Shown here piece by piece: positions 5,932 to 48,216 of a stretch of 64,000 bases of DNA. The stretch comes from Sulfurimonas sp. (GTDB lineage: Bacteria > Campylobacterota > Campylobacteria > Campylobacterales > Sulfurimonadaceae). Position 1 is the first letter of the stretch. Each line of letters begins with the position of its first letter. The stretch is taken from the NCBI RefSeq assembly GCF_029027585.1, contig NZ_CP093397.1:1103405-1167404 (forward strand), written 5' to 3'. The notes beneath the pieces are model-generated. The model saw only the letters and a program-made list of their open reading frames with translations, ran no database searches and was not told the origin of the DNA. The position numbers and the translations under genes were made by a program.

Positions 5932-5935
5932 AATA

Positions 5936-5944: not shown

Positions 5945-5973
5945 AACCGTACATCAACCGTAAAGGATAGATT

Positions 5974-9594: not shown

Positions 9595-9597
9595 CGT

Positions 9598-11384: not shown

Positions 11385-11390
11385 GTTTTG

Positions 11391-28181: not shown

Positions 28182-28263
28182 AATTTTAGGGAGACATTCA
28201 TGTTAAAAGAAATGCGAGAAATAATTTTAGGGAGACATTCATGTTAAAAGAAATGCGAGAAAA
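28182..28263 (+). repeat. Perfect 41-bp tandem duplication covering the SD and first 7 codons of the PAS gene
   Basis: Copy 1 (28182-28222) and copy 2 (28223-28263) are identical over 40 nt: aattttagggagacattcatgttaaaagaaatgcgagaaa. Copy 1 creates a 15-codon uORF at 28200-28247 ([15 protein letters not shown]) whose stop overlaps the real ATG at 28241. Confidence 0.95.
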
Positions 28264-28726: not shown

Positions 28727-30137
28727 CGGAACTATTTTACTATTTATTGCACTTATTGGTATTGCTATTTATAGTCTTGTTGGTGGAGATTTTACCTTAG
28801 CTGGAATTATTTTTGCCGTTTTAGTTGCTTCTATTTTAGTTCCTGTAAAAAAAGCAAGTTCTGCTGATGAAACTCTTCTAGATGCTATGCGTAGAGTTCT
28901 TCAAAATATGGGAGAGGGTAATCTTGAAGACCGCATCACAAACATTCCAAATAACAACTCCTCTCTTTCTGCTCGTGCTTGGGCTATTAACAATACACTA
29001 GACCAACTAGAAGCATTTATGCGAGATACTGTGGCTACCATAAATGCTTCTTCAGTTGGAAAAACTTATAGACGAACTCACGCAAGTGGCTTGCATGGAA
29101 CTTTTCATACAACCGCTACAAACTTAAATGGAACTATATCTTCTATTGCATCTAGTTATGAAACAAGAATCAGAGGAGAATTAGGCAGCAAGCTTGCAAA
29201 GTTAGGTGGCGGGATAGGTGCTGGTTTACAAATTATACAAAAAGATATAATTGGTTCACAAGAAGAGTCTGTAGAGATAGCAAAAATTTCACAGCAAACA
29301 GCTCAAAAATCTGAAAATAGTTTAAATAGCGTTGTAACACTTGGCAAAAAACTAAATATTTTAGTTGATTCCATAGCATCTTCACATGAAGGTATCATCT
29401 CTCTTGAACAAAGATCAAGTGAAATCTCTGATGTCGTAAATCTTATCAAAGATATAGCAGACCAAACAAATCTCTTGGCACTAAATGCTGCCATAGAAGC
29501 AGCTCGTGCGGGTGAGCATGGTAGAGGTTTTGCAGTTGTTGCAGATGAAGTTAGAAAATTAGCAGAACGCACACAAAAAGCAACAAATGAGATAGAAATA
29601 AATATCTCAACTCTTCAGCAAGAAACAAACGATATGCGAGTAAATTCTGATAATATTTCTGAGATTGCTCAAAATTCTAGTGAGGTTATTGTTAAATTTG
29701 AAGAAACATTTAAAGAGTTAAACTCTCTTGCTACAAAGGCATCTGGTGCGGCTATTCATATACAAAATAGAATGTTTGCAACTCTAGTTAAAGTTGACCA
29801 TATTCTATTTAAATCAGATGCTTACTCCTCTGTTTTAAACTCTGAAACTGATAAAGTTTTTATTGATCACAAATCATGTCGTATGGGTAAATGGTACTTA
29901 GGTATTGGTCAAGAGCATTTTGGACATACTAAAGCCTTTAGAGATATGGATATTCCGCATGCAAAAGTTCATGATTCTATTCTTAAAGTTCTACCTTTTG
30001 TGAAAGAAAAAACAACTTTAAAATATGATAATCCAAAGAAAATTCATGATACTTTCTCTGTGATGGAAGAAGCATCTGGAGAGTTATTTATTAAACTAGA
30101 TGAGATGTTAAAAGAGTATAACAGAAGCAGCAAATAA
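28695..30137 (+). CDS. Methyl-accepting chemotaxis protein with an N-terminal TM hairpin and a C-terminal CZB zinc-binding domain
   Basis: AAGGAG lies 6 nt upstream of ATG 28695. The signalling hairpin is [38 protein letters not shown]. The C-terminal [10 protein letters not shown]...HAKVHD matches the CZB H-x3-C...H-x2-H pattern. Confidence 0.9.
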
Positions 30138-30284: not shown

Positions 30285-31784
30285 ATGAAAATCATTTTAA
30301 GCACTTTAAATTCAAGATTTACACATACTTCCATCGCTCTTAGATACTTATACGCAAATTTAGAAGAACTACAAGGGGATGCTAAAATATTAGAGTTTAG
30401 TATCAACGATGCCCTTCAATCAATAGCCGAAAAACTTCTTTTTAATTCTCCCGATATTATTGGCATCGGTGTTTATATTTGGAATGCTAAAGAGATTTTT
30501 GAACTCATACATATTTTAAAAAAAATCTCTCCAAAAACTACCATTATTTTAGGTGGTCCTGAGGTTACTCATGAGCCATTTCGAGTAAATTTTGATATGG
30601 CAGACTATATCATTCAAGGTGAAGGCGATATAGCCTTTTATGAGTTGTGTAAAAATATACAAAACAATACTCTCCCTACAAACAAAATCATAAAAATAAA
30701 TCTGCCTTCATTAAAAAATATCAATTTACCCTACAAATACTATACAGATTCAGATATAAAAAACCGTTATGTCTATGTTGAAGTTTCCAGAGGTTGTCCT
30801 TTTTCTTGTGAGTTTTGCCTCTCTTCAATGGACGAGAGAGTTCGAGCCTTTGACTTAGATGAAGTTTTAAATGAGTTTGAAATACTTTGGAGCAGAGGTG
30901 CTAGAAACTTCAAGTTTATAGATAGAACATTTAATCTAAACATAAAAACAGCTAACAAGATTTTAGACTTCTTTTTAGCTAAAGAGCCACCATATTTTGC
31001 TCACTTTGAAGTTATACCTGACCATTTTCCATCATCTATAAAAGATAAAATAAAACGATTCGAAGATGGAGCCTTGCAGCTTGAGATTGGCATCCAAACG
31101 CTAAACCCACAAATCGCAAACAATATTTCAAGAGAATTAAAACTCGATAAAATCAAAGAAAATATAAGTTTTTTAGAGACTGAAACAAACGCTCACATGC
31201 ATCTAGACTTAATAGTTGGTCTTCCAGATGAGAGTTTAGAGAGTTTTGGAGCGAATCTTGATGAGTTGGTAAGGCTTAGTAGTTGTGAGATTCAAATCGG
31301 CATCTTAAAAAAACTCTCAGGTACAGAAATAAATCGCCATGACATAGAGTTTGAGATGGTTTATAGCGATATACCTCCTTATGATATTTTAAAAAATTCA
31401 AGACTTAGTTTTAATGACATTCAAATTATGAAAAGATTTTCAAGGTTTTGGGATTTAACTTATAATAGTGGTAATTTTAAAAAAAGTGTAAAACTACTTT
31501 GGCAAGAGCAAAGCGTGTATGAAAACTTTTATGATTTTTGTATATGGATGTATATACAAACTGATTCGACTTACAAAATCTCACTTCAAAGATTGGGTGA
31601 ACTTTTGTTTAAATATTTAGTAGATGCTAAAGGCTTAAACCAAGAGAATGTGGCACAAGAGATGCTCGAAGATATGATGAAGCTAAAAGGAAGAGCAATC
31701 CCAAGCTACTTAAAGCCTTTTTCGCAAGAGTTTAATGTAAAAGCAAAAATGGGAAGTGCTGGTTTTAACAAGAGACAACTTTAG
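30285..31784 (+). CDS. B12-binding-domain radical SAM protein (DUF4080-type C-terminus)
   Basis: An N-terminal Rossmann-like B12-binding region, then the radical SAM cluster CPFSCEFC. Confidence 0.8.
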   Translation: MKIILSTLNSRFTHTSIALRYLYANLEELQGDAKILEFSINDALQSIAEKLLFNSPDIIGIGVYIWNAKEIFELIHILKKISPKTTIILGGPEVTHEPFRVNFDMADYIIQGEGDIAFYELCKNIQNNTLPTNKIIKINLPSLKNINLPYKYYTDSDIKNRYVYVEVSRGCPFSCEFCLSSMDERVRAFDLDEVLNEFEILWSRGARNFKFIDRTFNLNIKTANKILDFFLAKEPPYFAHFEVIPDHFPSSIKDKIKRFEDGALQLEIGIQTLNPQIANNISRELKLDKIKENISFLETETNAHMHLDLIVGLPDESLESFGANLDELVRLSSCEIQIGILKKLSGTEINRHDIEFEMVYSDIPPYDILKNSRLSFNDIQIMKRFSRFWDLTYNSGNFKKSVKLLWQEQSVYENFYDFCIWMYIQTDSTYKISLQRLGELLFKYLVDAKGLNQENVAQEMLEDMMKLKGRAIPSYLKPFSQEFNVKAKMGSAGFNKRQL

Positions 31785-31797
31785 ATATAATTGTCTT

Positions 31798-32442
31798 ATG
31801 AGTATCTTAAAAGTTTTTATATTTTTATCACTAATGTTTGTATCTGTATCATTTGCAGACAAGCCCTATGTAGAGAAATCTCTCTTAAATAAAATAGGTA
31901 AAAAATATAAGGTATTTGCTAAAAAAAGGTTCTTTTATCTTCAAAAAACTCTGGATTCTGTTAAAGGTAAAAGTGAACTTGCCAAGCTAAATGCTGTAAA
32001 TAAATTTTACAATGAAGTTAGATATGCATCTGATATAAAAGTTTATAGAAAAAAAGATTATTGGGCTACTCCTTGGGAGTTTTTGGGTAAGGATATGGGT
32101 GACTGTGAAGATTATGTCATTAGTAAATATTTTGCACTTAGATATTTAGGCGTAGACTCTAAAAAGCTTTTTTTTACTTATGTTCGTTCTAGTAAGTTTA
32201 AACAGGCTCACATGGTTTTAACATACTTTAAAACCCCAAGAAGTGAGCCTCTTATTTTAGACAACAACAACCAAAAGATTTTCCCTGCTTCTAAGAGAAA
32301 AGATTTAACTCCTATTTATAACTTCAATGGAGAGAGTCTTTACAAAGCTAGTAAAACGGGAAAAGGTAAAAAAGTAAAAAGTAAAAAAGCCCATAAAAAA
32401 TGGGATCAACTAAAACTCAACATGAAAAGGAAAAAAATCTAA
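31798..32442 (+). CDS. Periplasmic transglutaminase-like cysteine protease (BTLCP, LapG-like)
   Basis: ATG 31798 gives a signal peptide (MSILKVFIFLSLMFVSVSFA). Catalytic context is GDCEDYVISKYFALRYLG, with AHMVL and ILDNN. Confidence 0.8.
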   Translation: MSILKVFIFLSLMFVSVSFADKPYVEKSLLNKIGKKYKVFAKKRFFYLQKTLDSVKGKSELAKLNAVNKFYNEVRYASDIKVYRKKDYWATPWEFLGKDMGDCEDYVISKYFALRYLGVDSKKLFFTYVRSSKFKQAHMVLTYFKTPRSEPLILDNNNQKIFPASKRKDLTPIYNFNGESLYKASKTGKGKKVKSKKAHKKWDQLKLNMKRKKI

Positions 32443-32443
32443 T

Positions 32444-33724
32444 TTAAAATGTATAAGTTATAGATGCTTTATAATAATCATAATCTTGATTCTTACTTTT
32501 ATCTGTATTAGCTCTAATAGCTTCATATAACAAACTTACACTTAAATTATTAATATACTTTATATCATGACCATAGATAACATATAGTACATCTTCACTA
32601 TTTTCTAAAGCTTCATTACGAGAATTAAATATCACATAATGAACACTAAACTTTCCATAACTAGAGTCATGAGATAGTCCTGTTTTTATTGCTTGCACAC
32701 CTGAAACATTATAAGTTGTAACAATAGCCTCTTGTGAGAAAACATACTCAGGATATCCACCCCATTTACCATGTATAGTAGGAAGACTATCTTTCAAATC
32801 AGTACTATGATATGCTAGTATTAATTTTGTATCGTATATATCTATCGCTGACATAAAACCATACACACTATAATCAACTTTTTCTTCTTTTATTCCACTA
32901 GCCCATTGGTTATACTTAGATGCAGAATGTACTTGCCAATATTGTACACCTAATGTCAAACCAAATTTACCAATTTTAGTATCGTACATTCCTTCTAGGT
33001 AATATATATCCACCAAATCATGTGCTTTGTAATACCATGCTTCTAAAACTGTATCAGTGATGCCGTAGTAAATAACAGAAGCTAAACTCACTCCTTTATT
33101 ATATTGCTCAACACCGTTTTTTGAAGATGTGATACCTGCTGCTTGAGTCATGGATACAAATGTTGTAATATCTCCATAAGAATCCCAACCAGACATTTTT
33201 GATACATGACCAATAGTTATCTTAGTATCACTAATATCACTATTGGTAAACATATAAGCTTCATAAAGATTTGGGATGATACTGCCATCATCCCCATCTA
33301 TAAAAGGTGTAGCTAAATATTGACGACCTACTTTAAGAGTAGAATTTTTATTTTTATACTCTAAATATGCTTGACCAAGTATTGTATAACTACTATCCCC
33401 ATACAATAAGCTCGTATTTGTAAGTTTTTTGGGTTCTGTACTAAAAGGCTCATCACTTCCTGTAGCTTTATTTGTTGTATAAGCCATGGCTCCAAGACTA
33501 AATCCATAAAGAGGTGCTGTCTTTAAACCAAAACTTCCACCAATAGCTGAACCTTCAGCATCTTCACCCTCTTCATTAGAGTTTTTTACAACATACTTAT
33601 AGCGAATTTCCCCCTCAACTTTAGCATTTTTAAAAGCACTTTGTAAACTATCTTCTGCCATAGAAGCTGTAAAAGTACAAGACACTATTATCAGCATTGC
33701 AAAAAATAATTTAATAAATTTCAT
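32444..33724 (-). CDS. OprD-family-like outer-membrane porin
   Basis: Signal peptide, KVGRQYLATPFIDGDDGSIIPNLYEAY, and a C-terminal ...ITYTF. Confidence 0.65.
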   Translation of the reverse strand: MKFIKLFFAMLIIVSCTFTASMAEDSLQSAFKNAKVEGEIRYKYVVKNSNEEGEDAEGSAIGGSFGLKTAPLYGFSLGAMAYTTNKATGSDEPFSTEPKKLTNTSLLYGDSSYTILGQAYLEYKNKNSTLKVGRQYLATPFIDGDDGSIIPNLYEAYMFTNSDISDTKITIGHVSKMSGWDSYGDITTFVSMTQAAGITSSKNGVEQYNKGVSLASVIYYGITDTVLEAWYYKAHDLVDIYYLEGMYDTKIGKFGLTLGVQYWQVHSASKYNQWASGIKEEKVDYSVYGFMSAIDIYDTKLILAYHSTDLKDSLPTIHGKWGGYPEYVFSQEAIVTTYNVSGVQAIKTGLSHDSSYGKFSVHYVIFNSRNEALENSEDVLYVIYGHDIKYINNLSVSLLYEAIRANTDKSKNQDYDYYKASITYTF

Positions 33725-33803
33725 TTATTGTTTCTTTTAAACTCTTTAAGAACATAATTATCTATAGCCCCGCTATGTATGAATACAACTGACTCTTTTT
33801 GAA

Positions 33804-35000
33804 TCACTTTATACTCTTTTGAAAAATAACTTTAGTACTGTATGGTTTCCATGAATCAAGTGGACGGAATCTATGGATAGTACCTTTTATCTTTGAAGAA
33901 TTTACATCCACTTTTAAATAGTTGTACTCTTCAAACCTGTCTTTTGTACCCCAGTAAAGTTCTTTTTCTTTTGATGGATTTTTAGCAAGTTCCATTTTTT
34001 GTGGTGCACCACTTCCACCAATAACCTGATAGTTGATTCCATCTACAACATAATGCTCAGTGGTATGAACATGGCTACTAAAAACAAATATACTTAAGTC
34101 CTTAGAATATTGTTTTAAAATTTTATGTGGACTTTGCTCTTTTGGTAATGGATTATGACCAATCTTATTAAAAGATGGCTTATGGTATGTGACAAAAACA
34201 TGCTCTATATTATCTCTTTTTGCCTCTTCTAATTTATCTTTTAAATATTTCATTTGTGTACTGAAATCTGGATGTTTACTTCCCCATCTTTCCTTACCAT
34301 TTACATAACCACCGCTATCTAAAAATATAAAACTGTTATTATCATAAATAAAACTATAGATACGGTTCTCAACACTAAAACCAAACTCTTCTAACCACGG
34401 GAATGTTGACCTAAATCCAGTAATTTTCTCTTCACTGCCCCAAACTTCATGGTTACCTATAACAGGAAATAACTTCGACTCATCAGGTAGTCTCATTAAA
34501 AGTTCATCATTGAAAAGTTGATAGTATGGATTGGAATTTAAATGTTCACCTTGAAAAGAAAAAAGTTGAATATCACCACCATGGATAATAAAAGAAGATT
34601 TTTCTCTTCTCATAGTAGAAATAATCTGATTATTAACCCATTTTCTACCTGAATCACGCATCATTATCTGACTTTTTTTACTTTTCTTATCTACAAATAT
34701 AAGTGCTTTTACCCAACCACTTTCATATTTCATGAGAATACTATATGTTTGCATGTCTATCTTTACCTGAATAAGCTCCAAGCCTAAATCATCAAAATTT
34801 AATTCAATATCTTTCTTATCACAGTTATATCGTTTTTGAATTATCTCTATAATTTGTGGTGTTTGCTCCTTCCCACCCGTTAAGTATGGTTCAGTTCTCG
34901 TATCTCCCATGACTATAAATGAAAACTCTTTAGCTTCAAGAGAGAGAACTAGATGACCAGCTAACATAAAAACCATAATATAATTAATCAAGACATTCAT
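33804..35000 (-). CDS. Exported calcineurin-like metallophosphoesterase
   Basis: N-terminal signal/anchor. Motifs are MGDTR, HGGD, GNHE and SSHVH. Confidence 0.8.
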   Translation of the reverse strand: MNVLINYIMVFMLAGHLVLSLEAKEFSFIVMGDTRTEPYLTGGKEQTPQIIEIIQKRYNCDKKDIELNFDDLGLELIQVKIDMQTYSILMKYESGWVKALIFVDKKSKKSQIMMRDSGRKWVNNQIISTMRREKSSFIIHGGDIQLFSFQGEHLNSNPYYQLFNDELLMRLPDESKLFPVIGNHEVWGSEEKITGFRSTFPWLEEFGFSVENRIYSFIYDNNSFIFLDSGGYVNGKERWGSKHPDFSTQMKYLKDKLEEAKRDNIEHVFVTYHKPSFNKIGHNPLPKEQSPHKILKQYSKDLSIFVFSSHVHTTEHYVVDGINYQVIGGSGAPQKMELAKNPSKEKELYWGTKDRFEEYNYLKVDVNSSKIKGTIHRFRPLDSWKPYSTKVIFQKSIK

Positions 35001-35947
35001 AATGCCCCCAATAAAAGTGGAATTGTAAGAATGCTAAATATAGTAGTAATAAATACAAGTTTAGAAGCCAATTCAGCGTCACATCCATATCTTTTTGCTA
35101 AAACTACACTTAACATCGCTGATGGCATAGCAGATTCTATCATTACTACTTCTAGTTGTGAACTACTTAAGTCTAAACTAAAAGAGGCTATCCAGACTAA
35201 AAGTGGGCTAACTAATAATTTTAGTAAAACCACTACAATAGCCAAGGATATAATAGAACGAAGACTATTAAACTGAAGTATCACACCAACCGTTAAGGCT
35301 ACAAAAAAGGTATTTGCTTTACTTATTAGAGATATAGCATCAAAAATCTCTTTAATAATTGGGATTTGAGTTGGTAAATTTAATAATGAGTATGCTAATC
35401 CTGCGATAATAGATAAAAATATTGGTGATATTAAAAATATGCTTATAATTTGCAATGGTGTCTGCTTTTGGGATGTGTTTGTTCCAAAATATACAGCTAC
35501 CATTGTACCTATAGTAAAAAACCCTATTCCGACACCAAGTTCCGAAATCAATACCGCTTCGGAAAGAGCTTTTACATTTGATGGAAAAACTTCTCCAATA
35601 ACGGCATAACCAAGTAAAGCGGAACTTCCAAAAGCTGATACAATCATCAGAGTTCCTAATTTCTCATTGCTTATATTTAGTCTTATTCCAATAAACCAAG
35701 CCATCAGCAAAACCAATATCTCACTCAACAACACAAAGAGTATAGCTAGTGCATATTCCCATTCTAGTGCCTTAGAGTGGGACATTACAGAAAATATGAC
35801 CGCTGGAAGTGTTATATGTGTAACAATTTTAGAAAAAAGCATGCCATCTTCTTTTTTCAATACACCGCTAAAACGAAACAATACAACAATACAGATAAGC
35901 ATAACCAATACGGAAATTGATGAAAAAGTTTCTAAGTATTTATCCAT
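34997..35947 (-). CDS. AEC (auxin efflux carrier) family transporter
   Basis: About 10 TM, 316 aa. It has the AEC-like N-terminus (...FSKIVTHITLPAVIF...) and two homologous halves. Confidence 0.75.
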   Translation of the reverse strand: MDKYLETFSSISVLVMLICIVVLFRFSGVLKKEDGMLFSKIVTHITLPAVIFSVMSHSKALEWEYALAILFVLLSEILVLLMAWFIGIRLNISNEKLGTLMIVSAFGSSALLGYAVIGEVFPSNVKALSEAVLISELGVGIGFFTIGTMVAVYFGTNTSQKQTPLQIISIFLISPIFLSIIAGLAYSLLNLPTQIPIIKEIFDAISLISKANTFFVALTVGVILQFNSLRSIISLAIVVVLLKLLVSPLLVWIASFSLDLSSSQLEVVMIESAMPSAMLSVVLAKRYGCDAELASKLVFITTIFSILTIPLLLGAL

Positions 35948-36554
35948 GATTTGTATTCCTTAAATTGGTTTTTGTGAAACTAATAATATAATCTTTAAAA
36001 TAAAAAAAATCGCCTATCTCGTTTGTGACAGTTTTTGGATTAATGTAAAGTCCATCTCCCATAGCTTTAAGTAAAGACTCTTTAGATGTCCACATTTTGT
36101 AAAAGTAATTATCTCTATCTTTTTTTGTCAAAGTATTAAACTTCGAGAGTTGTATTGTATTCATAAACTCCGCGGCTATACTCTTAGATACTATAGATGG
36201 TTCCATAAACTCTATATCTACTCCTACTGTAGCATTTGTAGATAATGCGACAGCTATTAAATTTTTAGAATAAGAGATACTAAAATCAACTTTCGAATGT
36301 TTAAACTTTGGTCTTTTCTTATTAGTGTAAATAAAAGAAAAATCTTTTAAACCATATTTCTTTGCGCAATGCTCAAAAAGAAAAGTTCTTGCTAAGTATC
36401 TCTTAATCTTGTCTATGTCTTGTTTATACTTTTGTATCTTGTCTAGCTGTTCGTTAGGAATTATAGAAGTGTCAACCATAGAACTATTTTGCTCTATGGC
36501 AAAGACAAATATTTCATAATTTTCATCACTATAAACTTTTTCTAAAGCATTCAT
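35940..36554 (-). CDS. Sfp-type 4'-phosphopantetheinyl transferase
   Basis: VGVDIE and WTSKESLLKAMG motifs. 204 aa. It lies directly downstream of the carrier-protein-containing enzyme. Confidence 0.8.
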   Translation of the reverse strand: MNALEKVYSDENYEIFVFAIEQNSSMVDTSIIPNEQLDKIQKYKQDIDKIKRYLARTFLFEHCAKKYGLKDFSFIYTNKKRPKFKHSKVDFSISYSKNLIAVALSTNATVGVDIEFMEPSIVSKSIAAEFMNTIQLSKFNTLTKKDRDNYFYKMWTSKESLLKAMGDGLYINPKTVTNEIGDFFYFKDYIISFTKTNLRNTNHG

Positions 36555-36559
36555 AGCTA

Positions 36560-39553
36560 TTAAATATTTAGTGCTTTGTTGAAAGTTTTATCAAAAGCAT
36601 TACCCAGTAACTCTTCATAATTATCATCAAAGTGTACATCATACTTTTTAAGTTCACTCTGTGCTAATGAAGTATCAAAGTGCATAAGTTCTTCACTTGC
36701 ATCATCTTGAAAATATAGTCTTAATGGAAAGAGTGGACTTGTCTCTTTTAGAGGAACTATAACCCTCGTTTTCCATTCATCAAAAGGAATAATTTCTATT
36801 TTTTTATTTGTAATTGAGCCAAGTAAACTGACATACTCTTTAAGTGAAATCTCATTTTGATTTGAAAGATTTAACATCATTTTATTAGATTCGCCTAAAC
36901 TCACACTAACTATTGCCTTTGCTAGTTGATTTACAGGAACCGCTTCAAATACAAAACCTAAATCAGGGGCTAAACCTGTATCTACATAAGCTCTCATCAT
37001 CAAAAGTGCAAAGTTACTATTTAGTGGGCTTGAAACACCTGTTTTTGTATTTAAAAAGATATTACCAGGTCTTAAAATTAGTCCACTCATTCCTCTATCA
37101 AAAGCTTGTTTTAATAAGCGTTCAGAAACCCACTTAGTTAGAGCATATCCACCAAAAAAATCTGCTGGGGTTTCACTCACTTTTGTCTCATATCCAACTC
37201 CATCAGCATTACTTTGACTTATTGCACTCTCTGTTGAAATATAAGAAATTTTCTTTTCTTTGCCATTCATAGCAATCTTTATAAACTCGATAGTACTTAG
37301 ACTATTAGAAGTTTTTAATTTAGAGTATCCATACATGTGGTTTACAGCCGCTGCGCAGTGAATAATATGTGTAGCATTATTTACTATAAATGCATAATCA
37401 TCTTCATTAATTCCTAGTTTTTCTTTAGAAATATCACCAGATATTGTATGAATTCTATCACTAAATTTTAAGGCGTCTTCTAGTTTTAATTTTTCTAATG
37501 CATGTAATTGTTGCTTATGTAGAGAAATATTTTCATGACTTCTTAGTAAACAATATATGTCAGCAGAAGTTTTTTCTAACAATTCCAAGAGCACATGCGC
37601 ACCTAAGTAACCCATAGAACCGGTAAGTAATATCACATCTTTAGACGCCTTGGAAGTATCACTCCAATTTGGAAATATACTCTTATCAAGTATGGAATCT
37701 CTCTTTGCGTTTACAAACTCATCATTGTGGTCAAACTGACCACCATGCTCATCGATAGATGTTGCTAAACCTTCAATTGTTGGCATCTCAAAAAAGGTAT
37801 TAAGGGAAAATGGTTTGTTTATCTTACTTCTAATTCCAGCATAAACAGTTGCTAGTAAAATAGATGAACCACCAAGTTCAAAAAAGTTATCCTTTATTCC
37901 AAATTCTGTTCGTCCTAAACACTCTGACCATACGCCATAGATAATTTTTTGTGTTTGAGTTTGAGGTTGGACTATATTATCACAAGCTATTTCTTTAAAA
38001 ACTGGGTCTGGAAGATTTTTTCTATCAATTTTACCGCGTTGTGTAACTGGTAATTTATCTAAAAGCACTATCTCTGTTGGAACTGAATACGCTGGCATCT
38101 TAGATTTAAGATAAAGCATATACTCAGATAAAAAGAAGTTGTCTTTTTGATTTTTTTCTAGCTGTATATAAGCAACAAGTATTTTTTCACTCTTATATTT
38201 AACCATCTTAATAGCGGCATTAGCAACACTTTCATGAGAAACTAGTACATTTTCTATACCGTCAAGTTCTAAACGAAATCCACGAAATTTAATCTGTCTA
38301 TCTGCACGACCTGAAAACTTCAAACTACCATCATCATCAAAATGAACTAAGTCACCTGTACGATAAAGCATATCTGTAGGATTACTAGTAAATGGATTAA
38401 CTATAAAATGCTCTGCTGTTTTTTCTGGCAAATTCAAATAACCTCTAGCTAACCTATGTCCACCTATATATAGTTCACCTGTTTCTTTTGGAGCAACTGG
38501 TTTTTGCTCATTATCTAGCACATATAAAACAGTATCTGCAAGAGCCTTTCCTACAGGTAGAGGGGAATGCTCATCTTCAAGCTCTCTTACAATATGAAAA
38601 GTTGCAAGTATCCCAGCCTCTGTTGGTCCATAACCATTGATAAATGCATCTGGACGACCATCATCATTATTTAAAACTTTATATACAGTTTTTGGATTTA
38701 CAACATCTCCGCCAGAAAGTAGATATTTTACTTTTTTAAACATTCCAGCTCTAAAAGCTACAAGTTGATCAAAAAGAGCAGATGTAACCCACATAACAGT
38801 AATATCATGATGATCTAAAAAGTTAGCATACTCTTCAGGATTTATAATTACTTCATAGTCTATACAAACAAGTGTTGCTGAGTTAAGCAGTGCTGTCCAT
38901 ATCTCAAAAGAAGCCGCATCAAAAGCGATACTACTAGATGATAAAACATTATCACTAGACTCCATAGTAAGATAATGAGGACTTCTAATCAGCCCTGTTA
39001 TGCCCATATGAGGCATTAACACACCTTTTGGTTTACCAGTTGAACCTGATGTAAAAAATACACACGCTATATTATGTCCACCAATATGAAGATGTTTTCT
39101 CTCATCCGAATAACTATCAATATTTTCAACTTCTCTAATACTAATAGAGTTAGGAAAATCAAAATTTTTACTATATTTATCATCTATAATCATTAGTTTT
39201 GGATTTACATCTTCAATAATCATCTTATGTCTAGTTGATGGTTCTTTTGTATCTATAGGAACATAAGTACCACCACACTTTAAGATGGCTAAAATAGAGA
39301 TAATAAAGTCAATTCCTCTATCATAAACCACACAAACCATATCTCCACTCTCTATATTGTGAACTTGATTCAAATATTTTGCATAACGGTTTGAAAGTAG
39401 GTCTAATTCTCTATATGTAATTGAGTTTTCATTGTGAACTACAGCAAGATTATCTGGTGCTAAATGTGCAGCTTTTGCAAATAGCCATGAAAGTTCTTGA
39501 GGATCATTAAGTGTAAGGTCAGCGTGTTTTATATCTAACATTATTTTCTCCAA
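36560..39553 (-). CDS. NRPS-like single-module enzyme: adenylation, thiolation, thioester reductase (A-T-R)
   Basis: A3 FFTSGSTGKPKGV, A5 NGYGPTE, A7 YRTGDL, A8 GRADRQIKFRGFRLEL and A10 GKIDRK. The carrier motif is FFELGGSS. The reductase has LLTGSMGYLGAHV (Rossmann) and GGYALTKWVSE (YxxxK). No condensation domain is present. Confidence 0.9.
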   Translation of the reverse strand: MEKIMLDIKHADLTLNDPQELSWLFAKAAHLAPDNLAVVHNENSITYRELDLLSNRYAKYLNQVHNIESGDMVCVVYDRGIDFIISILAILKCGGTYVPIDTKEPSTRHKMIIEDVNPKLMIIDDKYSKNFDFPNSISIREVENIDSYSDERKHLHIGGHNIACVFFTSGSTGKPKGVLMPHMGITGLIRSPHYLTMESSDNVLSSSSIAFDAASFEIWTALLNSATLVCIDYEVIINPEEYANFLDHHDITVMWVTSALFDQLVAFRAGMFKKVKYLLSGGDVVNPKTVYKVLNNDDGRPDAFINGYGPTEAGILATFHIVRELEDEHSPLPVGKALADTVLYVLDNEQKPVAPKETGELYIGGHRLARGYLNLPEKTAEHFIVNPFTSNPTDMLYRTGDLVHFDDDGSLKFSGRADRQIKFRGFRLELDGIENVLVSHESVANAAIKMVKYKSEKILVAYIQLEKNQKDNFFLSEYMLYLKSKMPAYSVPTEIVLLDKLPVTQRGKIDRKNLPDPVFKEIACDNIVQPQTQTQKIIYGVWSECLGRTEFGIKDNFFELGGSSILLATVYAGIRSKINKPFSLNTFFEMPTIEGLATSIDEHGGQFDHNDEFVNAKRDSILDKSIFPNWSDTSKASKDVILLTGSMGYLGAHVLLELLEKTSADIYCLLRSHENISLHKQQLHALEKLKLEDALKFSDRIHTISGDISKEKLGINEDDYAFIVNNATHIIHCAAAVNHMYGYSKLKTSNSLSTIEFIKIAMNGKEKKISYISTESAISQSNADGVGYETKVSETPADFFGGYALTKWVSERLLKQAFDRGMSGLILRPGNIFLNTKTGVSSPLNSNFALLMMRAYVDTGLAPDLGFVFEAVPVNQLAKAIVSVSLGESNKMMLNLSNQNEISLKEYVSLLGSITNKKIEIIPFDEWKTRVIVPLKETSPLFPLRLYFQDDASEELMHFDTSLAQSELKKYDVHFDDNYEELLGNAFDKTFNKALNI

Positions 39554-39599
39554 TTTTAAATTATTTTTAGTATCTATATCTTAAGTAACAATTATACTA

Positions 39600-40787
39600 T
39601 TATCCTCCAAATGGATTAAGGTGTAACATTCCAAATGTTTGCAGTAGTGTAATTAAAAAAGTAATGCTAAATGCTATTAAAAATATAGATGCTATTAATA
39701 TAGCAAATTTTGATCTAATCTTTCTAAAATAAATAACTGTTGGTAGTATCCCAAAAAGAAGCACAATACCAATACCTCCAACAATACTTAAAGCCTTTAA
39801 AAAGATATCTGCAAAGAAATATGCAACTATTAAAGGAGGTATAAAAGCTACTACAAAGACAAGCCATTTATTATAAATATTTAAACTATTTTCAAGTATA
39901 TCTTTAGAAAAATCTTTTAAACTCATGCCTATAGATACATAAGAAGTTGCTACAGCAATTATTGCAAATAGTGTCCCCATAATTAAAAAAAGGTCTGATT
40001 TTAAAATTTTAGACATTTCAAGGGTAATAGGCATACCTGTTAATCTAGCTTCATTTAGACTTATATGCCCAAATTCAGGAACAACCCCTACTGCTACTAC
40101 TAACCATATTGTATTCATAACAAAACCAATCAGAAGTCCTATGGCTATAGGTTTGTATATATCACCACTCCATTTAGCATCTCTACATATAGTTGGGATA
40201 ATAGGATGAAAAACAAATGCTGCAATTATCATAGGTACAGCTCTTGGTAAATACTCCCAATTTACATGAGAAAATCTATTGGCATCTATTCCTGAACTTC
40301 CTATATAAATCAATACCAAAAAAGCCATCCACAATAAAAGCATAAGAATGGTATTGTATTTTTTTATAATAGACATACTTGACATTGCTATATAAGTAAA
40401 AACTGCGAAAATAACCAAAAGTACCAAAGGTTCAAAAACTGCATCTATCTTAAAAACCATAAGAACAATTTTTGAAGAACCAACTAAATAACTTATGAGT
40501 AATCCATAAAAAATGATAAGATTTGCTATAGAAGCTATCCATTTTCCAGCTACTCCAAAATGTTCCTGATAGAGACTTGGAAAATTAAAAGTATCATCTT
40601 TCTTTTTATTTACCTCTTTTGCTAAAACAATACCTGAAAAAAACATACTTATAGAAAAAAATGCCATCATTAGCATAGATGGCCAAAAGCCAGAGATACC
40701 TGCATTAATTGGCATTGCTAATATACCAGCACCTATCATGTTACCAGCTACTAAAAAAGATAACATAAAAGTATGTTTAATGGTCAT
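39600..40787 (-). CDS. HAAAP-family (hydroxy/aromatic amino acid, Mtr/TyrP/TnaB/SdaC-like) permease
   Basis: N-terminal LVAGNMIGAGILAMPI, about 11 TM, 395 aa. Confidence 0.75.
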   Translation of the reverse strand: MTIKHTFMLSFLVAGNMIGAGILAMPINAGISGFWPSMLMMAFFSISMFFSGIVLAKEVNKKKDDTFNFPSLYQEHFGVAGKWIASIANLIIFYGLLISYLVGSSKIVLMVFKIDAVFEPLVLLVIFAVFTYIAMSSMSIIKKYNTILMLLLWMAFLVLIYIGSSGIDANRFSHVNWEYLPRAVPMIIAAFVFHPIIPTICRDAKWSGDIYKPIAIGLLIGFVMNTIWLVVAVGVVPEFGHISLNEARLTGMPITLEMSKILKSDLFLIMGTLFAIIAVATSYVSIGMSLKDFSKDILENSLNIYNKWLVFVVAFIPPLIVAYFFADIFLKALSIVGGIGIVLLFGILPTVIYFRKIRSKFAILIASIFLIAFSITFLITLLQTFGMLHLNPFGG

Positions 40788-42523
40788 TTAGTTGTTTTCT
40801 TTCGTGGTTTTTCATATCCAGTAGGACCATTTTTCCACTCTGATTTTTTATACCACTCTTTAGGATAACCAACTTCTTGAGCCATTTTGTTAGATTCATT
40901 CACATATCCATCACTATATTTTGCAACTAAATACCAAGCTAAACTCCACCACTCATCTACAACTTTATTTGCTTGAGTATTAGAGTACTCACTAAGTAGT
41001 TTTTTAGTCTTTTGTGGATTTTGTTTATATAGTGCTAAAGCTTTTTTATCCATAATTTTTATGCTTTGTAGCTGTGTATATTCTAACTCATTTTGTTTTT
41101 GTTTTATATCTTCTATGATATAGCTATATTTAAGTCCTGCCCAATTAGCTACAAAATTAAATGCCCACCATGCACTTTTTTGATCAAACTTATTACTAAG
41201 ACCAGTATAGTAACTTTTTGGAATTGAATCTATTCCTACATAAAATGGCGTAATTACTGTACTCATTGGTTGATCTGGTCCAAACCATACAATACCACCG
41301 ATAGGGTCTGGTAACCAACTTCTAGCTTGAAGTACAAAACTATAACCGCTTCTGTATATTGAAAGTGGTCTCTCCCAAGCACCTTTGAGTTTGGCACTTG
41401 GATTCCCAGTATCATTTCCAGCATCCATCGAACCTGGATATCTATAAGGATTACCAAAAGGTCCCGCGGTTATGCCTTTTGATTGGTCAAACTCAGTTCC
41501 CTGATAATAATCACGATACAAATTTATTACATCTCTAACATCTAGTTTTTTATCTGGCTTAATTGAAAATGGATACTGAGAAGTAAAACCATCTTTTGCC
41601 CAAGGACTTAGCTTCATAGATGGAGCCAACTTATCTTGAACTCTCCAAACTCTTCTAAGTGAATAGTAAGGATGACTATATTCTCCCTCACTAACTGTTC
41701 TCAACCAATCAAGTTTCCCATCTTTAGGGTTCCACCAACCATACTTTTTTGCTATTTTATGAAGGTTTTTTGAGTACAACATATCTGGAGAGTTTGTATC
41801 TATTTCTCTAATTCTAAACTCATTTGCAGCTACAAAGATTTCTCCATCTGGAACTCTTTTAGCTACCCAAAGACCACCTTTGCCCTCTGGACTTGGTGCC
41901 ATTTCTATGACCCAACCTTCATTTTTATCAGCTACGGGGAGAGTCTCTCCTGTTCCATAATAACCATAAGTCTCTATCAATTCACCTATGAGAGCGATGG
42001 CATCTCTAGCTGTTTTTGTTCTCTCAAGTGCCACACGACTAAGTTCAGAACTGTAAAAAAGAAGTTTACCTGGCTTTGGTTCAGCTGTAATTTTTGCACC
42101 ATTTGTAGCCTCTCCAAACATCAGTTGATGTTCGTTCATAATTCCATAGTTACCTTCAAAGTAAGCATAAGTATGCTTAACTTGTGGAATAAATCCTAAA
42201 GGAATACTTTGAGGTTTAGTTTTATCTTTATATACCTCTCCTCTATCTTCACCAACATATCGCTGAAGTACATTAGCATTAAACTCCGCTCTATTTCCTA
42301 AAGAAGAAGCATCGTAATAAACTGCTCTGAGTGAACCAGCTTTATGATCTTTTGCAGGTACTAAGACAAGCCTATTATCAAACATCTCACTGTCATCTGA
42401 ATGAGCTACAAATACTGAACCATCTTTAGAAGCACCTTTTGTGATAATCATCGTAGTACATGCAAGTGACGATGACATAACAACGAAACTTACAATAACT
42501 AATGCTTTAAATATACTTTTCAT
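40784..42523 (-). CDS. Secreted peptidase family C69 dipeptidase
   Basis: Signal peptide, then the N-terminal nucleophile context A-CTTMIITKGASKDGSVFVAHSDD, typical of C69 (Ntn-type Cys). Confidence 0.85.
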   Translation of the reverse strand: MKSIFKALVIVSFVVMSSSLACTTMIITKGASKDGSVFVAHSDDSEMFDNRLVLVPAKDHKAGSLRAVYYDASSLGNRAEFNANVLQRYVGEDRGEVYKDKTKPQSIPLGFIPQVKHTYAYFEGNYGIMNEHQLMFGEATNGAKITAEPKPGKLLFYSSELSRVALERTKTARDAIALIGELIETYGYYGTGETLPVADKNEGWVIEMAPSPEGKGGLWVAKRVPDGEIFVAANEFRIREIDTNSPDMLYSKNLHKIAKKYGWWNPKDGKLDWLRTVSEGEYSHPYYSLRRVWRVQDKLAPSMKLSPWAKDGFTSQYPFSIKPDKKLDVRDVINLYRDYYQGTEFDQSKGITAGPFGNPYRYPGSMDAGNDTGNPSAKLKGAWERPLSIYRSGYSFVLQARSWLPDPIGGIVWFGPDQPMSTVITPFYVGIDSIPKSYYTGLSNKFDQKSAWWAFNFVANWAGLKYSYIIEDIKQKQNELEYTQLQSIKIMDKKALALYKQNPQKTKKLLSEYSNTQANKVVDEWWSLAWYLVAKYSDGYVNESNKMAQEVGYPKEWYKKSEWKNGPTGYEKPRKKTTK

Positions 42524-42761
42524 ATTGACTCCTTCGTATTTTTTATTACTTGTTTTTACTTATATAATCTATTATAACAAAATAGCGTTTGATTTGTGTT
42601 TGATGAAACTTAAACGGAGGTATCTACTTAAAACTCAAATTTAAAGTATCAAATATATAAAGAAAGGTACTAAATCGATGAAAAGGTTTATATTTTTTTT
42701 AAGAAACGCTATAATGGTAATATAATCTATACTAACATGATTTCTAGATGAAGGGGAGTGA

Positions 42762-42836
42762 ATGCTCAAACAATTTTTTAAAAAAATTAACTTTAAAATT
42801 CGAGCCTGCATAGTTTGCAACTCCAATAAGACATAA
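42762..42836 (+). promoter_or_regulatory. 24-codon upstream ORF (MLKQFFKKINFKIRACIVCNSNKT) preceding the lapD-like gene
   Basis: The strongest SD in the intergenic region (AAGGGGAG) lies 5 nt before ATG 42762. The stop TAA (42834-42836) is 3 nt before ATG 42840 and in the same frame. Confidence 0.3.
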
Positions 42837-42839
42837 AAT

Positions 42840-44771
42840 ATGACCCTCTTTAAACAAATAGCTATACTGCTTTCTATATTTTTACTCATAGTTTTAACAA
42901 CTGTTTTAACACTAAACTTTCAAAGTGCTAATGAATCTGCACAAGATAGACTATATGAAGATGCTAAAAACACAGCAACCTCTCTAAGCCTTTCTCTTGG
43001 TAGTGCAAATGGAGATATTTCCATGATGTCAACTATGATAAATGCGAACTTTGACAGCGGTAACTATCGTTACATTTCTCTTGTTGATGTTGATAATACC
43101 TTAATTTATGATAGAAGTATTGAGAGTGATTTATCTAATATTCCAAATTGGTTTTTAAATATTGTAAACATAGATGCACCAGTTGCATCTGCCAATGTTT
43201 CTGCTGGGTGGAGTCAAGTTGGAATGTTAAATGTACAAAGTGATGAAACTTATGCGTACAAACAACTATATACTATTTTAAAAAGTCTTATCATCTCTTT
43301 TAGTATTATTGCTTTTGTTGGATTAGTGATACTAAACTTACTTTTAGCTGCTATCTTAAAACCTTTATCAGAGGTTCAAAAACAAGCAGAAGCAGTTATA
43401 CGAAATGAGTTTATTATACAAACCACTATTCCTTACACAAAAGAGTTTAAAGATGTTGTTCTAGGAATGAATAACATGGTATCAAAAGTAAAAGCTATGT
43501 TTGACAAAGGAAACGAAGAGTTAAAACGCCAAAAAGAACTTGAATATATAGACAAAACAACAAAACTTAGAAATCGTAAATACTTTATAGATAAACTTCC
43601 AGAATACCTTAAAATAGATGCCTCTTCTCGTGGTGGTATAAATATTATGATAGCATTTAATGGGGTCATTCAAGCAAATGAGCAGATAGGTCATAGAGAT
43701 GTTGATAAACTTTTTATTGATATATCAGATATATTTAGCGCTCATGCAGACAACTACAAAAACTCCATAGTTGCGAGAATGAATGGTACGGAGTTTTCTA
43801 TCTTACTTCCAGATTGTGCATCTATTGATGCGATAGATATAGCAGAAAATATATCAGGAGTAACAAAAGAACTTGTTAAGTCTTTAGAGTTGAATAAAGA
43901 TGATGTCTATCTTGCCTTGGGTCTTTATGAGTATAACTATAAGGAAAACATAGGACAACTTCTTTCTCACTCTGACAATGCACTAGCACAAGCGAAGTTT
44001 AAAGATTCCAAAATCCATCTACAAAAAGCTGAAGATGCGGTAGAAGTTATGGGTAAAGAAGCTTGGAGAAAAATCATAAACGAAGCCATACAAAACAATT
44101 GTTTCAACTTTGTATCTTGGAAGGCAGTAAACGCTAAGACTAAACAAACAGACCATAATGCTCTAAGTTTAATCCTTAACATAGATAAAGATACTACTTA
44201 TTATTATGGGCAGTTTATGGCGCCAGCAAATCAAGCAGGATTAGGTAATAAAATCTATAAAAACATCTTAAACAAGATGTTTAAAACTCCAGATGCAAGG
44301 TTAAGAGGGACAACTTGCTCTCTTAGGCTTCCGTTTGATTATTTAGAGTTAAATGATACTTATGAAGATATGAGTAGACTTTTTGAAATATTTGCTAAAA
44401 CTCTTGGATTTAAACTTATCATTGAAATGCCAGATAAACTAGTTAGACGAAATAATAAAGAGATTAAACGCTACAAAGCTCTTTTTGAAAAATATGATAT
44501 AGAAATGGGAATTTTTGAGTTCATTGGCGAGAGTGTTGATTATCAATATCTTCAAGATTTAAGACCAGTTTATATAAAAGGTGAACCAGGTTATTTTTTA
44601 AGTCAAAGTGACCAATCTTTATCTGCTTTTAGACTTATTACCGATACTGTTGGAATCTCTTTGATTGCAACAGGAGTCATGGATATGGATACTTTAAAAC
44701 GACTTCAAGAAAAAGATATTCACATCATTCAAGGTAAAGCTACCGAGATGATAGATATGAAAAAGGTTTAA
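42840..44771 (+). CDS. LapD-like inner-membrane c-di-GMP receptor (LapD/MoxY N-terminal domain, HAMP, degenerate GGDEF, degenerate EAL)
   Basis: MTLFKQIAILL...DAKNTATSLSLSL...NFDSGNYRYISL...PNWF...GW parallels P. fluorescens LapD as I recall it. GGDEF position reads NGTEF, and no EAL triplet is present. Confidence 0.75.
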   Translation: MTLFKQIAILLSIFLLIVLTTVLTLNFQSANESAQDRLYEDAKNTATSLSLSLGSANGDISMMSTMINANFDSGNYRYISLVDVDNTLIYDRSIESDLSNIPNWFLNIVNIDAPVASANVSAGWSQVGMLNVQSDETYAYKQLYTILKSLIISFSIIAFVGLVILNLLLAAILKPLSEVQKQAEAVIRNEFIIQTTIPYTKEFKDVVLGMNNMVSKVKAMFDKGNEELKRQKELEYIDKTTKLRNRKYFIDKLPEYLKIDASSRGGINIMIAFNGVIQANEQIGHRDVDKLFIDISDIFSAHADNYKNSIVARMNGTEFSILLPDCASIDAIDIAENISGVTKELVKSLELNKDDVYLALGLYEYNYKENIGQLLSHSDNALAQAKFKDSKIHLQKAEDAVEVMGKEAWRKIINEAIQNNCFNFVSWKAVNAKTKQTDHNALSLILNIDKDTTYYYGQFMAPANQAGLGNKIYKNILNKMFKTPDARLRGTTCSLRLPFDYLELNDTYEDMSRLFEIFAKTLGFKLIIEMPDKLVRRNNKEIKRYKALFEKYDIEMGIFEFIGESVDYQYLQDLRPVYIKGEPGYFLSQSDQSLSAFRLITDTVGISLIATGVMDMDTLKRLQEKDIHIIQGKATEMIDMKKV

Positions 44772-44841: not shown

Positions 44842-45228
44842 CTAGAGAGCGGTCAAAGTTAAGATGACATCTTTATTGGTGTTTGGATGCCTACATATTG
44901 TAAACAAAATATCCATATAAATATCAAAATCTGGATGCGCTCTTTCTCCAATTTTTTCATGAACTATGCCATGATGTTTTATGACTAACTCAAGAGCATT
45001 TTTAAGTTCACTTGTTGTCGATTTTTTATTTTTAATGACACTTCTTAAATACTCTAAGCTTGTGTTTTGAGTTTCATTTGACACTATTGGAGAATCGGGG
45101 GAAGAGTCATTTTTTTGTTGAGATACTTGTTTCTTTTTTTTAGTTGATGGCAAAAATAGTAAAAATATCAAAACAGCCAAGATTACTATCAAACCCATAA
45201 CTGATTTTATAAGTAATGTTATTTCCAC
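44842..45228 (-). CDS. Membrane-anchored hypothetical protein
   Basis: GTG start, one N-terminal TM helix and a K-rich linker. No family was recognised. Confidence 0.4.
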   Translation of the reverse strand: MEITLLIKSVMGLIVILAVLIFLLFLPSTKKKKQVSQQKNDSSPDSPIVSNETQNTSLEYLRSVIKNKKSTTSELKNALELVIKHHGIVHEKIGERAHPDFDIYMDILFTICRHPNTNKDVILTLTAL

Positions 45229-45880: not shown

Positions 45881-47047
45881 ATGATAAAGATATTATCAAC
45901 CATTATTCTTTTAAACCTATCACTATTTGGACAAAATTTTGATGCGTTCTTAAAAGAGGCTATAAAAAATTCTACTTACTTAAAATCTTCGGATTTAAGT
46001 ATTTCTCAGGCGAAACAACAAGGCGATATTTTAACAAGATATGAAAACCCATCTCTTGAGTTAGAGTATTCAAACTTTTCACCACAAGGTGGAGATGCAG
46101 ATAGCGGTTATAGACTTAGTTATACACAGCCCTTAAGACTTTGGGGTGTTGGCAATGATAAAATAAAACTCTCAGATGCCATAATCAAAAGTGCAAACAT
46201 GCAAAAAACTCTCAATTTAGCAGAGTTTACTCGCACAACTTCTTTACTTTATAGCATCTATGCACACGATAAAAAGTATCTTTTACTTTCAAATGAACAA
46301 CTCAACATTGCTAAACGCATCTATGAAATTTCAAAAGAGCGCTACAAAGCAGGAACGATTTCTAGAGGAGAGCTCCTTCAATCAAGTATAGACTATAAGA
46401 TGATAGAGATAAAAATTCAAGAAGCTAAATTAAAAGCAAATGAAAGCTATTTTTCTTTACTAGAATATACAAAAAGTACAAAAGAGGTTGAGATAGATTT
46501 TACTCATAGTTTTTCAAAAATACAAATGAAAAATATCAACAATCCTGAGTTACTCTATCTCAAAAAACAAAAAAACAAATCTCTTGCAAACGCAAAAGTA
46601 AACTCTAACAAATTAGAGTTTATAAATATTGTTGGCGAGTATGAAAAAGAACCAGAGCAAAATATATTTAGACTAGGAGCATCTATACCTCTTGTTATTT
46701 TTAATACAAAATCTCAAGAAAAACGCATAGCAAAACTGCAGTCTGACAAGTTTGACCTTCAAGCACAAAACAAAAGTCAAAGACTAAAAATAGAGCTAAG
46801 TAAACTCACAAAAAAAGAGAACTTACTTCTTTTGTTAAAGACACAAAATCAAAACACTTTAAAGCTTCAACTTGAAGTCTTAAAAATGTTTGAACAGGGA
46901 TATAAAATAGCAAATGTAAATTTATTAGAACTTCAATATATACAAAATAAGCTTATCAAAACGAAAGAAAATCTTATTAATATTGAGAGTTCTTTAAACG
47001 AAAATGCCATTTGGCATAACTATATCACAGGGGTATATAATGACTAA
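45881..47047 (+). CDS. TolC/CzcC-family outer-membrane efflux protein
   Basis: Signal peptide, two OEP-type repeats, 388 aa. It overlaps the adaptor gene by 8 nt. Confidence 0.85.
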   Translation: MIKILSTIILLNLSLFGQNFDAFLKEAIKNSTYLKSSDLSISQAKQQGDILTRYENPSLELEYSNFSPQGGDADSGYRLSYTQPLRLWGVGNDKIKLSDAIIKSANMQKTLNLAEFTRTTSLLYSIYAHDKKYLLLSNEQLNIAKRIYEISKERYKAGTISRGELLQSSIDYKMIEIKIQEAKLKANESYFSLLEYTKSTKEVEIDFTHSFSKIQMKNINNPELLYLKKQKNKSLANAKVNSNKLEFINIVGEYEKEPEQNIFRLGASIPLVIFNTKSQEKRIAKLQSDKFDLQAQNKSQRLKIELSKLTKKENLLLLLKTQNQNTLKLQLEVLKMFEQGYKIANVNLLELQYIQNKLIKTKENLINIESSLNENAIWHNYITGVYND

Positions 47048-48207: not shown

Positions 48208-48216
48208 GGAGATAGT

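Follow-up and report, generated by a model that had tools for sequence, protein, structure and literature searches.

A candidate permease-coupled amino-acid reductase module on an insertion between lapG and lapD in Sulfurimonas

Stand-alone adenylation-thiolation-reductase (A-T-R) enzymes form a small and recently opened class, the products of which include bacterial signals and virulence regulators. In bacteria, the single-module enzymes of this type have been described as rare and largely unexplored (PMC8179380). The lone ATRed gene suffices for pyrazine formation in Escherichia coli (PMC7586950), the amino aldehydes formed by GupB of Streptomyces likewise undergo self-condensation (PMC8179380), and valine or leucine feeds the pvf and ham pathways, in which PvfC and HamD are the central A-T-R enzymes (PMC10194917). 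Here, we analyze a block of seven genes in Sulfurimonas sp. (assembly GCF_029027585.1, contig NZ_CP093397.1) in which a stand-alone A-T-R gene lies between genes for an amino-acid permease and a 4'-phosphopantetheinyl transferase (PPTase). The DNA analyzed is a stretch of 64,000 nt, referred to as the window, and the coordinates of the block are positions in this window. The kinship of the window enzyme to PvfC, HamD, ATRed and GupB is drawn from their shared architecture and from the literature.

Based on the comparisons reported here, we suggest with moderate confidence that the functional core of the block is a three-gene permease/A-T-R/PPTase module that has spread horizontally and is carried on an islet in this strain, while the other four genes are strain-variable accessories. 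This degree of confidence applies to the explanation taken as a whole, including the strain-specific nature of the islet.

The A-T-R enzyme and its relatives

The A-T-R protein has 993 residues (WP_321779479.1), and its start is placed at ATG 39541 instead of TTG 39553 because an identical database protein has that length. Family calls here and below derive from Pfam and NCBIfam profile searches of the block proteins, with the curated cutoffs applied for NCBIfam. In Pfam, the domain order is AMP-binding, PP-binding and NAD_binding_4, and the NCBIfam models for amino-acid adenylation (TIGR01733, 373 vs. a cutoff of 317) and thioester reductase (TIGR01746, 217 vs. 213) both score above their cutoffs. 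The Pfam search detected no condensation domain (PF00668) in the 993 residues or in the neighboring genes, and no second module. Across 31 orthologues, the A-domain motifs A3 (TSGSTGxPKG), A7 (YxTGD) and A8 (GRxDxQxKxRGxR) and the A10 lysine are invariant, as are the serine of the T-domain GGxS motif (LGGSS in the window protein, with G557, G558 and S560 invariant) and the TGxxGxLG motif and Y...K pair of the R domain (TGSMGYLG and YALTK in the window protein). The protein thus has every feature of a stand-alone single-module A-T-R amino-acid reductase that can be read from a sequence, and we assign it this predicted identity.

Using a PheA fragment verified to be identical to residues 234-526 of 1amu_A for the numbering, the specificity code of the A domain is DAFWLGGILK in 30 of the 31 orthologues and DAFWLGGIIK in the remaining one. 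It agrees with DAFWLGGTFK, a documented valine code (PMC9113097), at eight of ten positions. D235 and K517 are retained in the orthologues and, therefore, the substrate is predicted to be an alpha-amino acid with a free alpha-amino group and a carboxylate. The combination of Phe239 and Trp278 gives the shallow pocket of valine-type A domains; in view of this pocket, an aromatic substrate, as the family name of the permease might suggest, was rejected as the leading reading.

The 31 orthologue clusters have 52-100% identity, after which the next matches drop to about 36% and cover the A domain only; among the matches listed, identity to proteins outside the family is 39% at most (36% in the top-scoring match), again within the A domain only. 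The named sources are Sulfurimonas, Chromatiaceae (Thiorhodovibrio, Lamprobacter and Rhabdochromatium), Desulfobacteraceae and metagenome-assembled genomes from hydrothermal vents. The family is, in other words, not confined to Campylobacterota, as a first-pass annotation of the window might have implied. The GC content of the A-T-R loci spans 27% to 67%, and the gene lies at different genomic sites in L007 and L008 (L numbers denote the loci and contigs compared). A tblastn search of plasmids gave nothing above 33% identity and no plasmid-borne relative, and a scan of genome contigs with the A-T-R protein as the single query yielded only an irrelevant match in Mesonia. All annotations of the orthologues are generic, and a literature search retrieved no publication on this family or on genes of Sulfurimonas resembling nonribosomal peptide synthetases (NRPS), in line with the first-pass view of the system as undescribed. 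By these relationships, the family is a distinct orphan clade that appears to have spread horizontally among sulfur-cycle bacteria.

Conserved core, insertion site and accessory genes

About 20 non-redundant A-T-R loci were searched, the queries being the seven proteins of the window block together with permeases and PPTases taken from the loci themselves. Wherever the flank of a locus is readable, a Trp_Tyr_perm permease gene adjoins the A-T-R gene, and this occurs in four gene orders. Permease, A-T-R and PPTase genes follow one another co-directionally in the window, L007 and L008, and in L020 and L025, which are cut off inside the A-T-R gene. In L009/L010, L015, L017, L019 and L023, the A-T-R gene has a divergent PPTase gene on one side and a convergent permease gene on the other. 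In L002 (Thiorhodovibrio), L004 and L014, the A-T-R gene and a convergent permease gene are found with no adjacent PPTase gene, and in L011 and L021 the A-T-R gene precedes a co-directional permease gene. The permeases are of two subtypes, which share about 28% identity over a quarter of their length and both score above the Pfam threshold. Because the adjacency has been kept through such extensive rearrangement, there is good evidence that the permease and the A-T-R enzyme would work together.

The PPTase gene adjoins the A-T-R gene in most loci (L007, L008, L012, L009/L010, L015, L017, L019, L023 and L028), and the window PPTase contains the motifs GVDIE and WTSKESLLK and gives weak matches to HetI and AusB. 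In L008 and L012, the core stands beside unrelated neighbors, while in the loci of Chromatiaceae and Desulfobacteraceae only the permease accompanies the A-T-R enzyme, with the PPTase present or not. As judged from these loci, the recurring unit comprises three genes only, i.e. those for the permease, the A-T-R enzyme and the PPTase. The window permease scores below the cutoffs for the HAAAP aromatic transporter model TIGR00837 (160 vs. 350) and for TyrP (82 vs. 482); because TIGR00837 is under its cutoff, the protein is not assigned as an aromatic amino-acid transporter, and its likely substrate is not readable from family membership. In L012 (39% GC), the upstream permease is reduced to three fragments (query residues 4-29, 149-189 and 312-393; L012 1844-2276) and the A-T-R and PPTase genes are intact despite this decay, which suggests that the module is decaying or has been repurposed there.

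Two of the wider neighborhoods have a character of their own. In L011 (8467-22005, in a 4.2-Mb genome of 56% GC), the A-T-R and permease genes lie amid PIN-domain, PDDEXK_9, DruA-like and two Transposase_31 genes, a setting that points to a mobile or defence island. In L002 (1551-19486), they are found among genes for two ClC channels, a Na+/H+ exchanger, a beta-carbonic anhydrase and MarC, together with sucrose-phosphate-phosphatase-like and amylase-family genes; this neighborhood looks tied to ion or osmotic balance, with coincidence being possible.

In the window, the block lies between a convergent gene for a LapG-like protease and a divergent gene for a LapD-like receptor for cyclic di-GMP (c-di-GMP) (Table 1). 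On L045, a related Sulfurimonas metagenome contig, lapG (9357-10004) and lapD (10001-11926) overlap by 4 nt. The LapG proteins of the window and L045 are 82% identical through to the last residue, and the LapD proteins are 79% identical starting at Met1. Because the two genes overlap in L045 and the identity continues to the end of LapG and from Met1 of LapD, the segment between them in the window is identified as an insertion. The 22 kb of L045 contain no gene for any of the seven block proteins. The GC content of the insert is 31.9%, that of the remainder of the window 30.8%; a repeat search found no direct or inverted repeats flanking the borders of the block, and the block contains no integrase or transposase gene. 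As far as this comparison can tell, the block is one clean insertion of 10.4 kb, placed between the chromosomal lapG and lapD genes of this Sulfurimonas, and it is in this sense that its earlier description as self-contained is borne out. Consistent with a strain-specific distribution, the A-T-R enzyme is rare in Sulfurimonas, with nine clusters of at least 72% identity vs. more than 120 LapD clusters of at least 67%. The insertion splits the lapG-lapD pair such that lapD, now apart from lapG, must use a new upstream region; the split might alter c-di-GMP-controlled adhesin release in this strain.

Table 1. Features of the inserted block and its flanks in the window
Feature	Position	Strand	Evidence and remarks
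LapG-like BTLCP cysteine protease	31756..32442	+	PF06035, 59 bits; left flank, outside the system
Terminator-like hairpin with T-run	32390..32404	-	Weak; 40 nt past the porin stop codon
Insertion, 10,397 nt	32443..42839		Seven genes plus 316-nt leader; from lapG stop to lapD start
OprD-like outer-membrane porin	32444..33724	-	PF03573, 44 bits (cutoff 25); strain-specific accessory
Exported dimetal phosphoesterase (Metallophos)	33804..35000	-	PF00149, 33 bits; accessory
AEC-family (Mem_trans) membrane transporter	34997..35947	-	PF03547, 96 bits; strain-specific accessory
Sfp-type PPTase	35940..36554	-	ACPS PF01648, 45 bits; core
Stand-alone A-T-R amino-acid reductase (predicted)	36560..39541	-	Core
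R domain of A-T-R	~36647-37633	-	PF07993, 161 bits
T (carrier) domain of A-T-R	~37760-37942	-	PF00550, 32 bits
A domain of A-T-R	~38030-39481	-
HAAAP / Trp_Tyr_perm amino-acid permease	39600..40787	-	PF03222, 172 bits; core
Peptidase_C69 dipeptidase, periplasmic	40784..42523	-	PF03577, 210 bits; accessory
Candidate extended -10 element TGTTATAAT	42571..42579	-	Putative, read by eye; 47 nt upstream of the C69 ATG
LapD-like c-di-GMP receptor (LapD_MoxY_N-GGDEF-EAL)	42840..44771	+	Right flank, outside the system

The list of open reading frames (ORFs) reproduces exactly the seven packed minus-strand genes at 32444-42523 that the first-pass annotation had described, with overlaps of 4, 8 and 4 nt and gaps of 46, 5 and 79 nt. 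Moving the A-T-R start to ATG 39541 is the one correction and makes the permease-to-A-T-R gap 58 nt. All seven family assignments made at that stage were recovered by the profile searches, and the view of the central enzyme as a stand-alone A-T-R protein that lacks a condensation domain and is accompanied by its own Sfp-type PPTase is upheld by the domains, the motifs and the two NCBIfam scores. The spacing of the genes suggests that all seven are co-transcribed. The candidate -10 element, a ribosome-binding site (GAAGGAG) read by eye between this element and the dipeptidase gene, and the hairpin are weak regulatory indications. In a consensus scan of the region for promoters and terminators, the counts were those of shuffled sequence, i.e. 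at chance level. Rfam gave no family matches in the region, and the leader is without excess structure (z = 0.11), with no riboswitch or structured leader that would name a ligand.

The four remaining genes differ from the core in their distribution. The C69 dipeptidase scores below the cutoff of the equivalog model NF033678 (192 vs. 250) and is, thus, a member of the family and not the assigned equivalog. Its signal peptide, read by eye as MKSIFKALVIVSFVVMSSSLA|CTT and ending ...SLA|CTT, would expose a cysteine upon cleavage; an exposed cysteine is the usual N-terminal nucleophile of the C69 family. Export signals were also read by eye in the phosphoesterase (...LVLSLEA|KE) and the porin (...TASMA|ED), the latter ending in ...TYTF with a terminal phenylalanine. 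All NCBIfam Opr porin models are below their cutoffs for the porin, and the Pfam profile, the signal peptide and the C-terminal aromatic residue are those of the OprD family. The AEC transporter is likewise below the cutoff of TIGR00946 (111 vs. 246). The dipeptidase (85% identity) and the metallophosphoesterase (73%) recur only in L007, where they follow the PPTase gene in a different order, and neither a homologue of the AEC transporter nor the OprD-like porin was found in any other of the about 20 A-T-R loci. Upstream of its core (4857-7227), L007 encodes a 412-residue multi-pass membrane protein with a weak Polysacc_synt/MOP match (E = 6e-5, below cutoff) and a lipoprotein-like inosine-uridine nucleoside hydrolase; the accessory genes of L007, dipeptidase and phosphoesterase included, encode mostly periplasmic hydrolases.

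The metallophosphoesterase family is small, with 101 clusters among 5.8 billion proteins, many of them from Desulfobacterales, and three distant members (L042-L044) are found in unrelated contexts without an A-T-R gene. The AlphaFold model of the window protein has a predicted local distance difference test (pLDDT) score of 94. Its best folds in the PDB are purple acid phosphatases (E = 1e-12, TM 0.5-0.65), and it also resembles SMPDL3A-type phosphodiesterases; the fold has an extra beta-rich insert at about residues 60-115. According to the model, the protein has the fold of a generic phosphoesterase of the periplasm, similar to that of purple acid phosphatases, and it is probably unrelated to the core pathway. 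Because of this generic fold and the unrelated family contexts, we rejected it as a dedicated partner of the A-T-R enzyme.

Beyond lapD, a 128-residue ORF (44842-45228, minus strand) has a weak match to YxzE-like bacteriocins (E = 4e-4, below cutoff) and sits between lapD and an operon for a TolC-like, HlyD-like and AcrB-type efflux system (45881-51297, plus strand). The window is rich in signaling genes (21988-25005, 28241-30137, 54438-56465 and 17551-19140), which encode two more GGDEF-EAL proteins, a PAS protein and two chemoreceptors, one of them with a CZB zinc-binding domain. Two ORFs, at 12553-13956 (467 residues) and 56506-58413 (635 residues), have no Pfam match at E <= 0.001.

Proposed pathway and alternative explanations

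In the model that we favor, the three-gene core probably reduces an amino acid resembling valine to a reactive amino aldehyde. The substrate imported by the permease would be an alpha-amino acid with a small, branched aliphatic side chain, for which valine is the first candidate and isoleucine or leucine a less likely one, and the PPTase, as expected from its family, would convert the carrier domain to the holo form. The A domain, for which the domain and its motifs are present, would adenylate the amino acid indicated by the code and load it as a thioester, and the R domain, with its own motifs in place, would release an alpha-amino aldehyde with NAD(P)H. By analogy with ATRed, PvfC and GupB, two aldehydes would then condense spontaneously to a 2,5-dialkyl-dihydropyrazine or pyrazine. 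The predicted product is either such an aldehyde-derived pyrazine or an alcohol. Because the A-T-R enzyme is always coupled to an amino-acid permease, its distribution suggests that it works on an imported and not on an endogenous substrate.

Several points weigh against this model. The aromatic and hydroxy amino acids with which the HAAAP family is mostly associated are no obvious fit to the valine-like code, and it is odd for an autotroph with its own valine synthesis to pair the enzyme with an importer. To our knowledge, Ile-Leu at code positions 330/331 occurs in no known code; because these positions differ from the known codes, the substrate could be non-proteinogenic, and a related or non-proteinogenic aliphatic substrate is possible. 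A pyrazine would arise from a dihydropyrazine only by oxidation, and oxidants are scarce where conditions are sulfidic. The remaining points concern the division between core and accessories: the joint recurrence of the dipeptidase and the metallophosphoesterase in L007 makes some link to the core possible, and the PPTase/AEC and AEC/phosphoesterase overlaps argue for co-expression in this strain. A final point is the closest solved R domain, which is that of the alcohol-forming, four-electron MxaA (4u7w, E = 1e-38), the aldehyde-forming R domain of AusA being far more distant (E = 3e-11).

The similarity to MxaA raises the alternative that the R domain of the same core performs a four-electron reduction, in which case valinol or a comparable stable amino alcohol would be made and a pyrazine would not. 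Such an alcohol would be expected to be chemically stable in habitats that are sulfidic and poor in oxygen. However, R domains that transfer two electrons are not known to be reliably distinguishable by sequence similarity from those that transfer four, and all the characterized stand-alone bacterial amino-acid A-T-R enzymes considered here, i.e. ATRed and GupB as well as PvfC and HamD by citation, release aldehydes; we regard this outcome as doubtful.

Less likely still is a pathway that involves all seven genes, in which periplasmic cleavage of dipeptides would be followed by import of the amino acid and its reductive release, and the AEC transporter and the OprD-like porin would export the product. 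Such a complete route was the first-pass proposal, and it is favored by the location of the genes on a single strand, by their overlaps, by their arrival as one insertion and by the recurrence of the dipeptidase and the metallophosphoesterase with the core in L007, which has a different candidate exporter upstream in the form of the weakly Polysacc_synt/MOP-like protein. Against it, co-conservation of the seven genes, looked at in the about 20 loci, fails for four of them, with the AEC transporter and the porin missing from all other A-T-R loci. In addition, the cores of L008 and L012 have unrelated neighbors, the loci of Chromatiaceae and Desulfobacteraceae have at most the permease and PPTase, and the metallophosphoesterase is a generic enzyme, the family of which occurs without A-T-R genes. 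Passage through porins is generally passive, and pyrazines of small size should not depend on an exporter. Of the complete route, the predicted import, loading and reduction steps are supported by the sequences, while the export half, for which the AEC transporter and the porin would be responsible, is not. An export role of the AEC transporter is possible but unsupported by conservation. Since members of the OprD family are known as uptake channels, the porin is easier to reconcile with supply of the substrate than with export of the product; together with the dipeptidase, it could plausibly increase the amount of substrate obtained from peptides and in this way feed the permease.

Finally, that the A-T-R enzyme is a primary-metabolism reductase of the Lys2 (alpha-aminoadipate) or carboxylic acid reductase type, with no specialized product released, is highly improbable: the partial matches to the Lys2 model TIGR03443 (L-aminoadipate-semialdehyde dehydrogenase, 377 bits) and to the carboxylic acid reductase model NF041592 (140 bits, R-domain part only) are far under the curated cutoffs of 1030 and 1300, on which ground both identities were rejected, and the code is valine-like, the gene is missing from most Sulfurimonas and from the lapG-lapD site of L045, its partner permease is decayed in L012, and it occupies different sites in L007 and L008.

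Returning to the three-gene core, we tentatively speculate that it is a mobile "take up and reduce" device, by means of which sulfur oxidizers and sulfate reducers living at sulfidic interfaces would take a valine-like amino acid from their environment and make from it a diffusible signal or inhibitor of the dialkyl-(dihydro)pyrazine or amino-aldehyde type. If so, it would add a first small-molecule system of the NRPS type to Sulfurimonas and to Campylobacterota as a whole and would define a new permease-dependent class of A-T-R pathway. The hosts are chemolithoautotrophs and anaerobes of sulfidic habitats, which are not known for NRPS chemistry, and the core measures only about 4.8 kb.

Comparison with described A-T-R systems

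Among characterized synthetases, AusA of the aureusimine pathway in Staphylococcus is the best NCBIfam match for the A-T part of the window enzyme (513 bits vs. a cutoff of 2500), and AusB, the dedicated PPTase of AusA, matches the window PPTase weakly (51 vs. 225). AusA has a valine-activating module and a terminal reductive release that is followed by cyclization. However, it has two modules and a condensation domain and forms a dipeptide aldehyde that gives a pyrazinone, whereas the window enzyme is single-module; since it lacks a condensation domain and scores far under the cutoff, an AusA-type dimodular synthetase was rejected.

PvfC and HamD of Pseudomonas and Burkholderia (PMC10194917, PMC8179380) share the A-T-R architecture with the window enzyme, and valine or leucine serves as the precursor in their pathways. 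The pvf/ham products are signals, i.e. (dihydro)pyrazine N-oxides and valdiazen. By contrast to the window block, the pvf cluster is defined by PvfA, the diiron N-oxygenase PvfB and PvfD beside PvfC, and it has no permease, whereas the window core has one. In the Pfam scan, no N-oxygenase-type family was found in the block genes, in the ten nearest flanking ORFs scanned or in the orthologous loci. With the PvfB/HamC-type N-oxygenase, PvfA and PvfD not present, identity with a pvf/ham cluster was rejected.

GupB, from the guanipiperazine cluster of Streptomyces (PMC8179380), is like the window enzyme a bacterial single-module A-T-R protein, and its amino aldehydes self-condense to an imine and then give a pyrazine or piperazine. 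It uses tyrosine, and it acts with two P450 enzymes and a reductase that depends on F420H2, for which the block has no counterparts. ATRed (xind01729 of Xenorhabdus indica; PMC7586950) is also a stand-alone A-T-R enzyme that lacks a condensation domain, and its single gene accounts for the reduction of an alpha-amino acid to an aldehyde that dimerizes to a pyrazine. ATRed uses phenylalanine, while the code of the window enzyme is valine-like. The host of ATRed is a gammaproteobacterial insect pathogen, that of the window enzyme a sulfur-cycle bacterium; and for ATRed no adjacent dedicated permease or PPTase is reported, whereas the window has both. Set against these systems, the window family is unusual as a distinct, permease-coupled clade with a substrate code that is frozen across three phyla. 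The enzyme class and its chemistry are already known, while the conserved core that couples the enzyme to a permease is hitherto undescribed.

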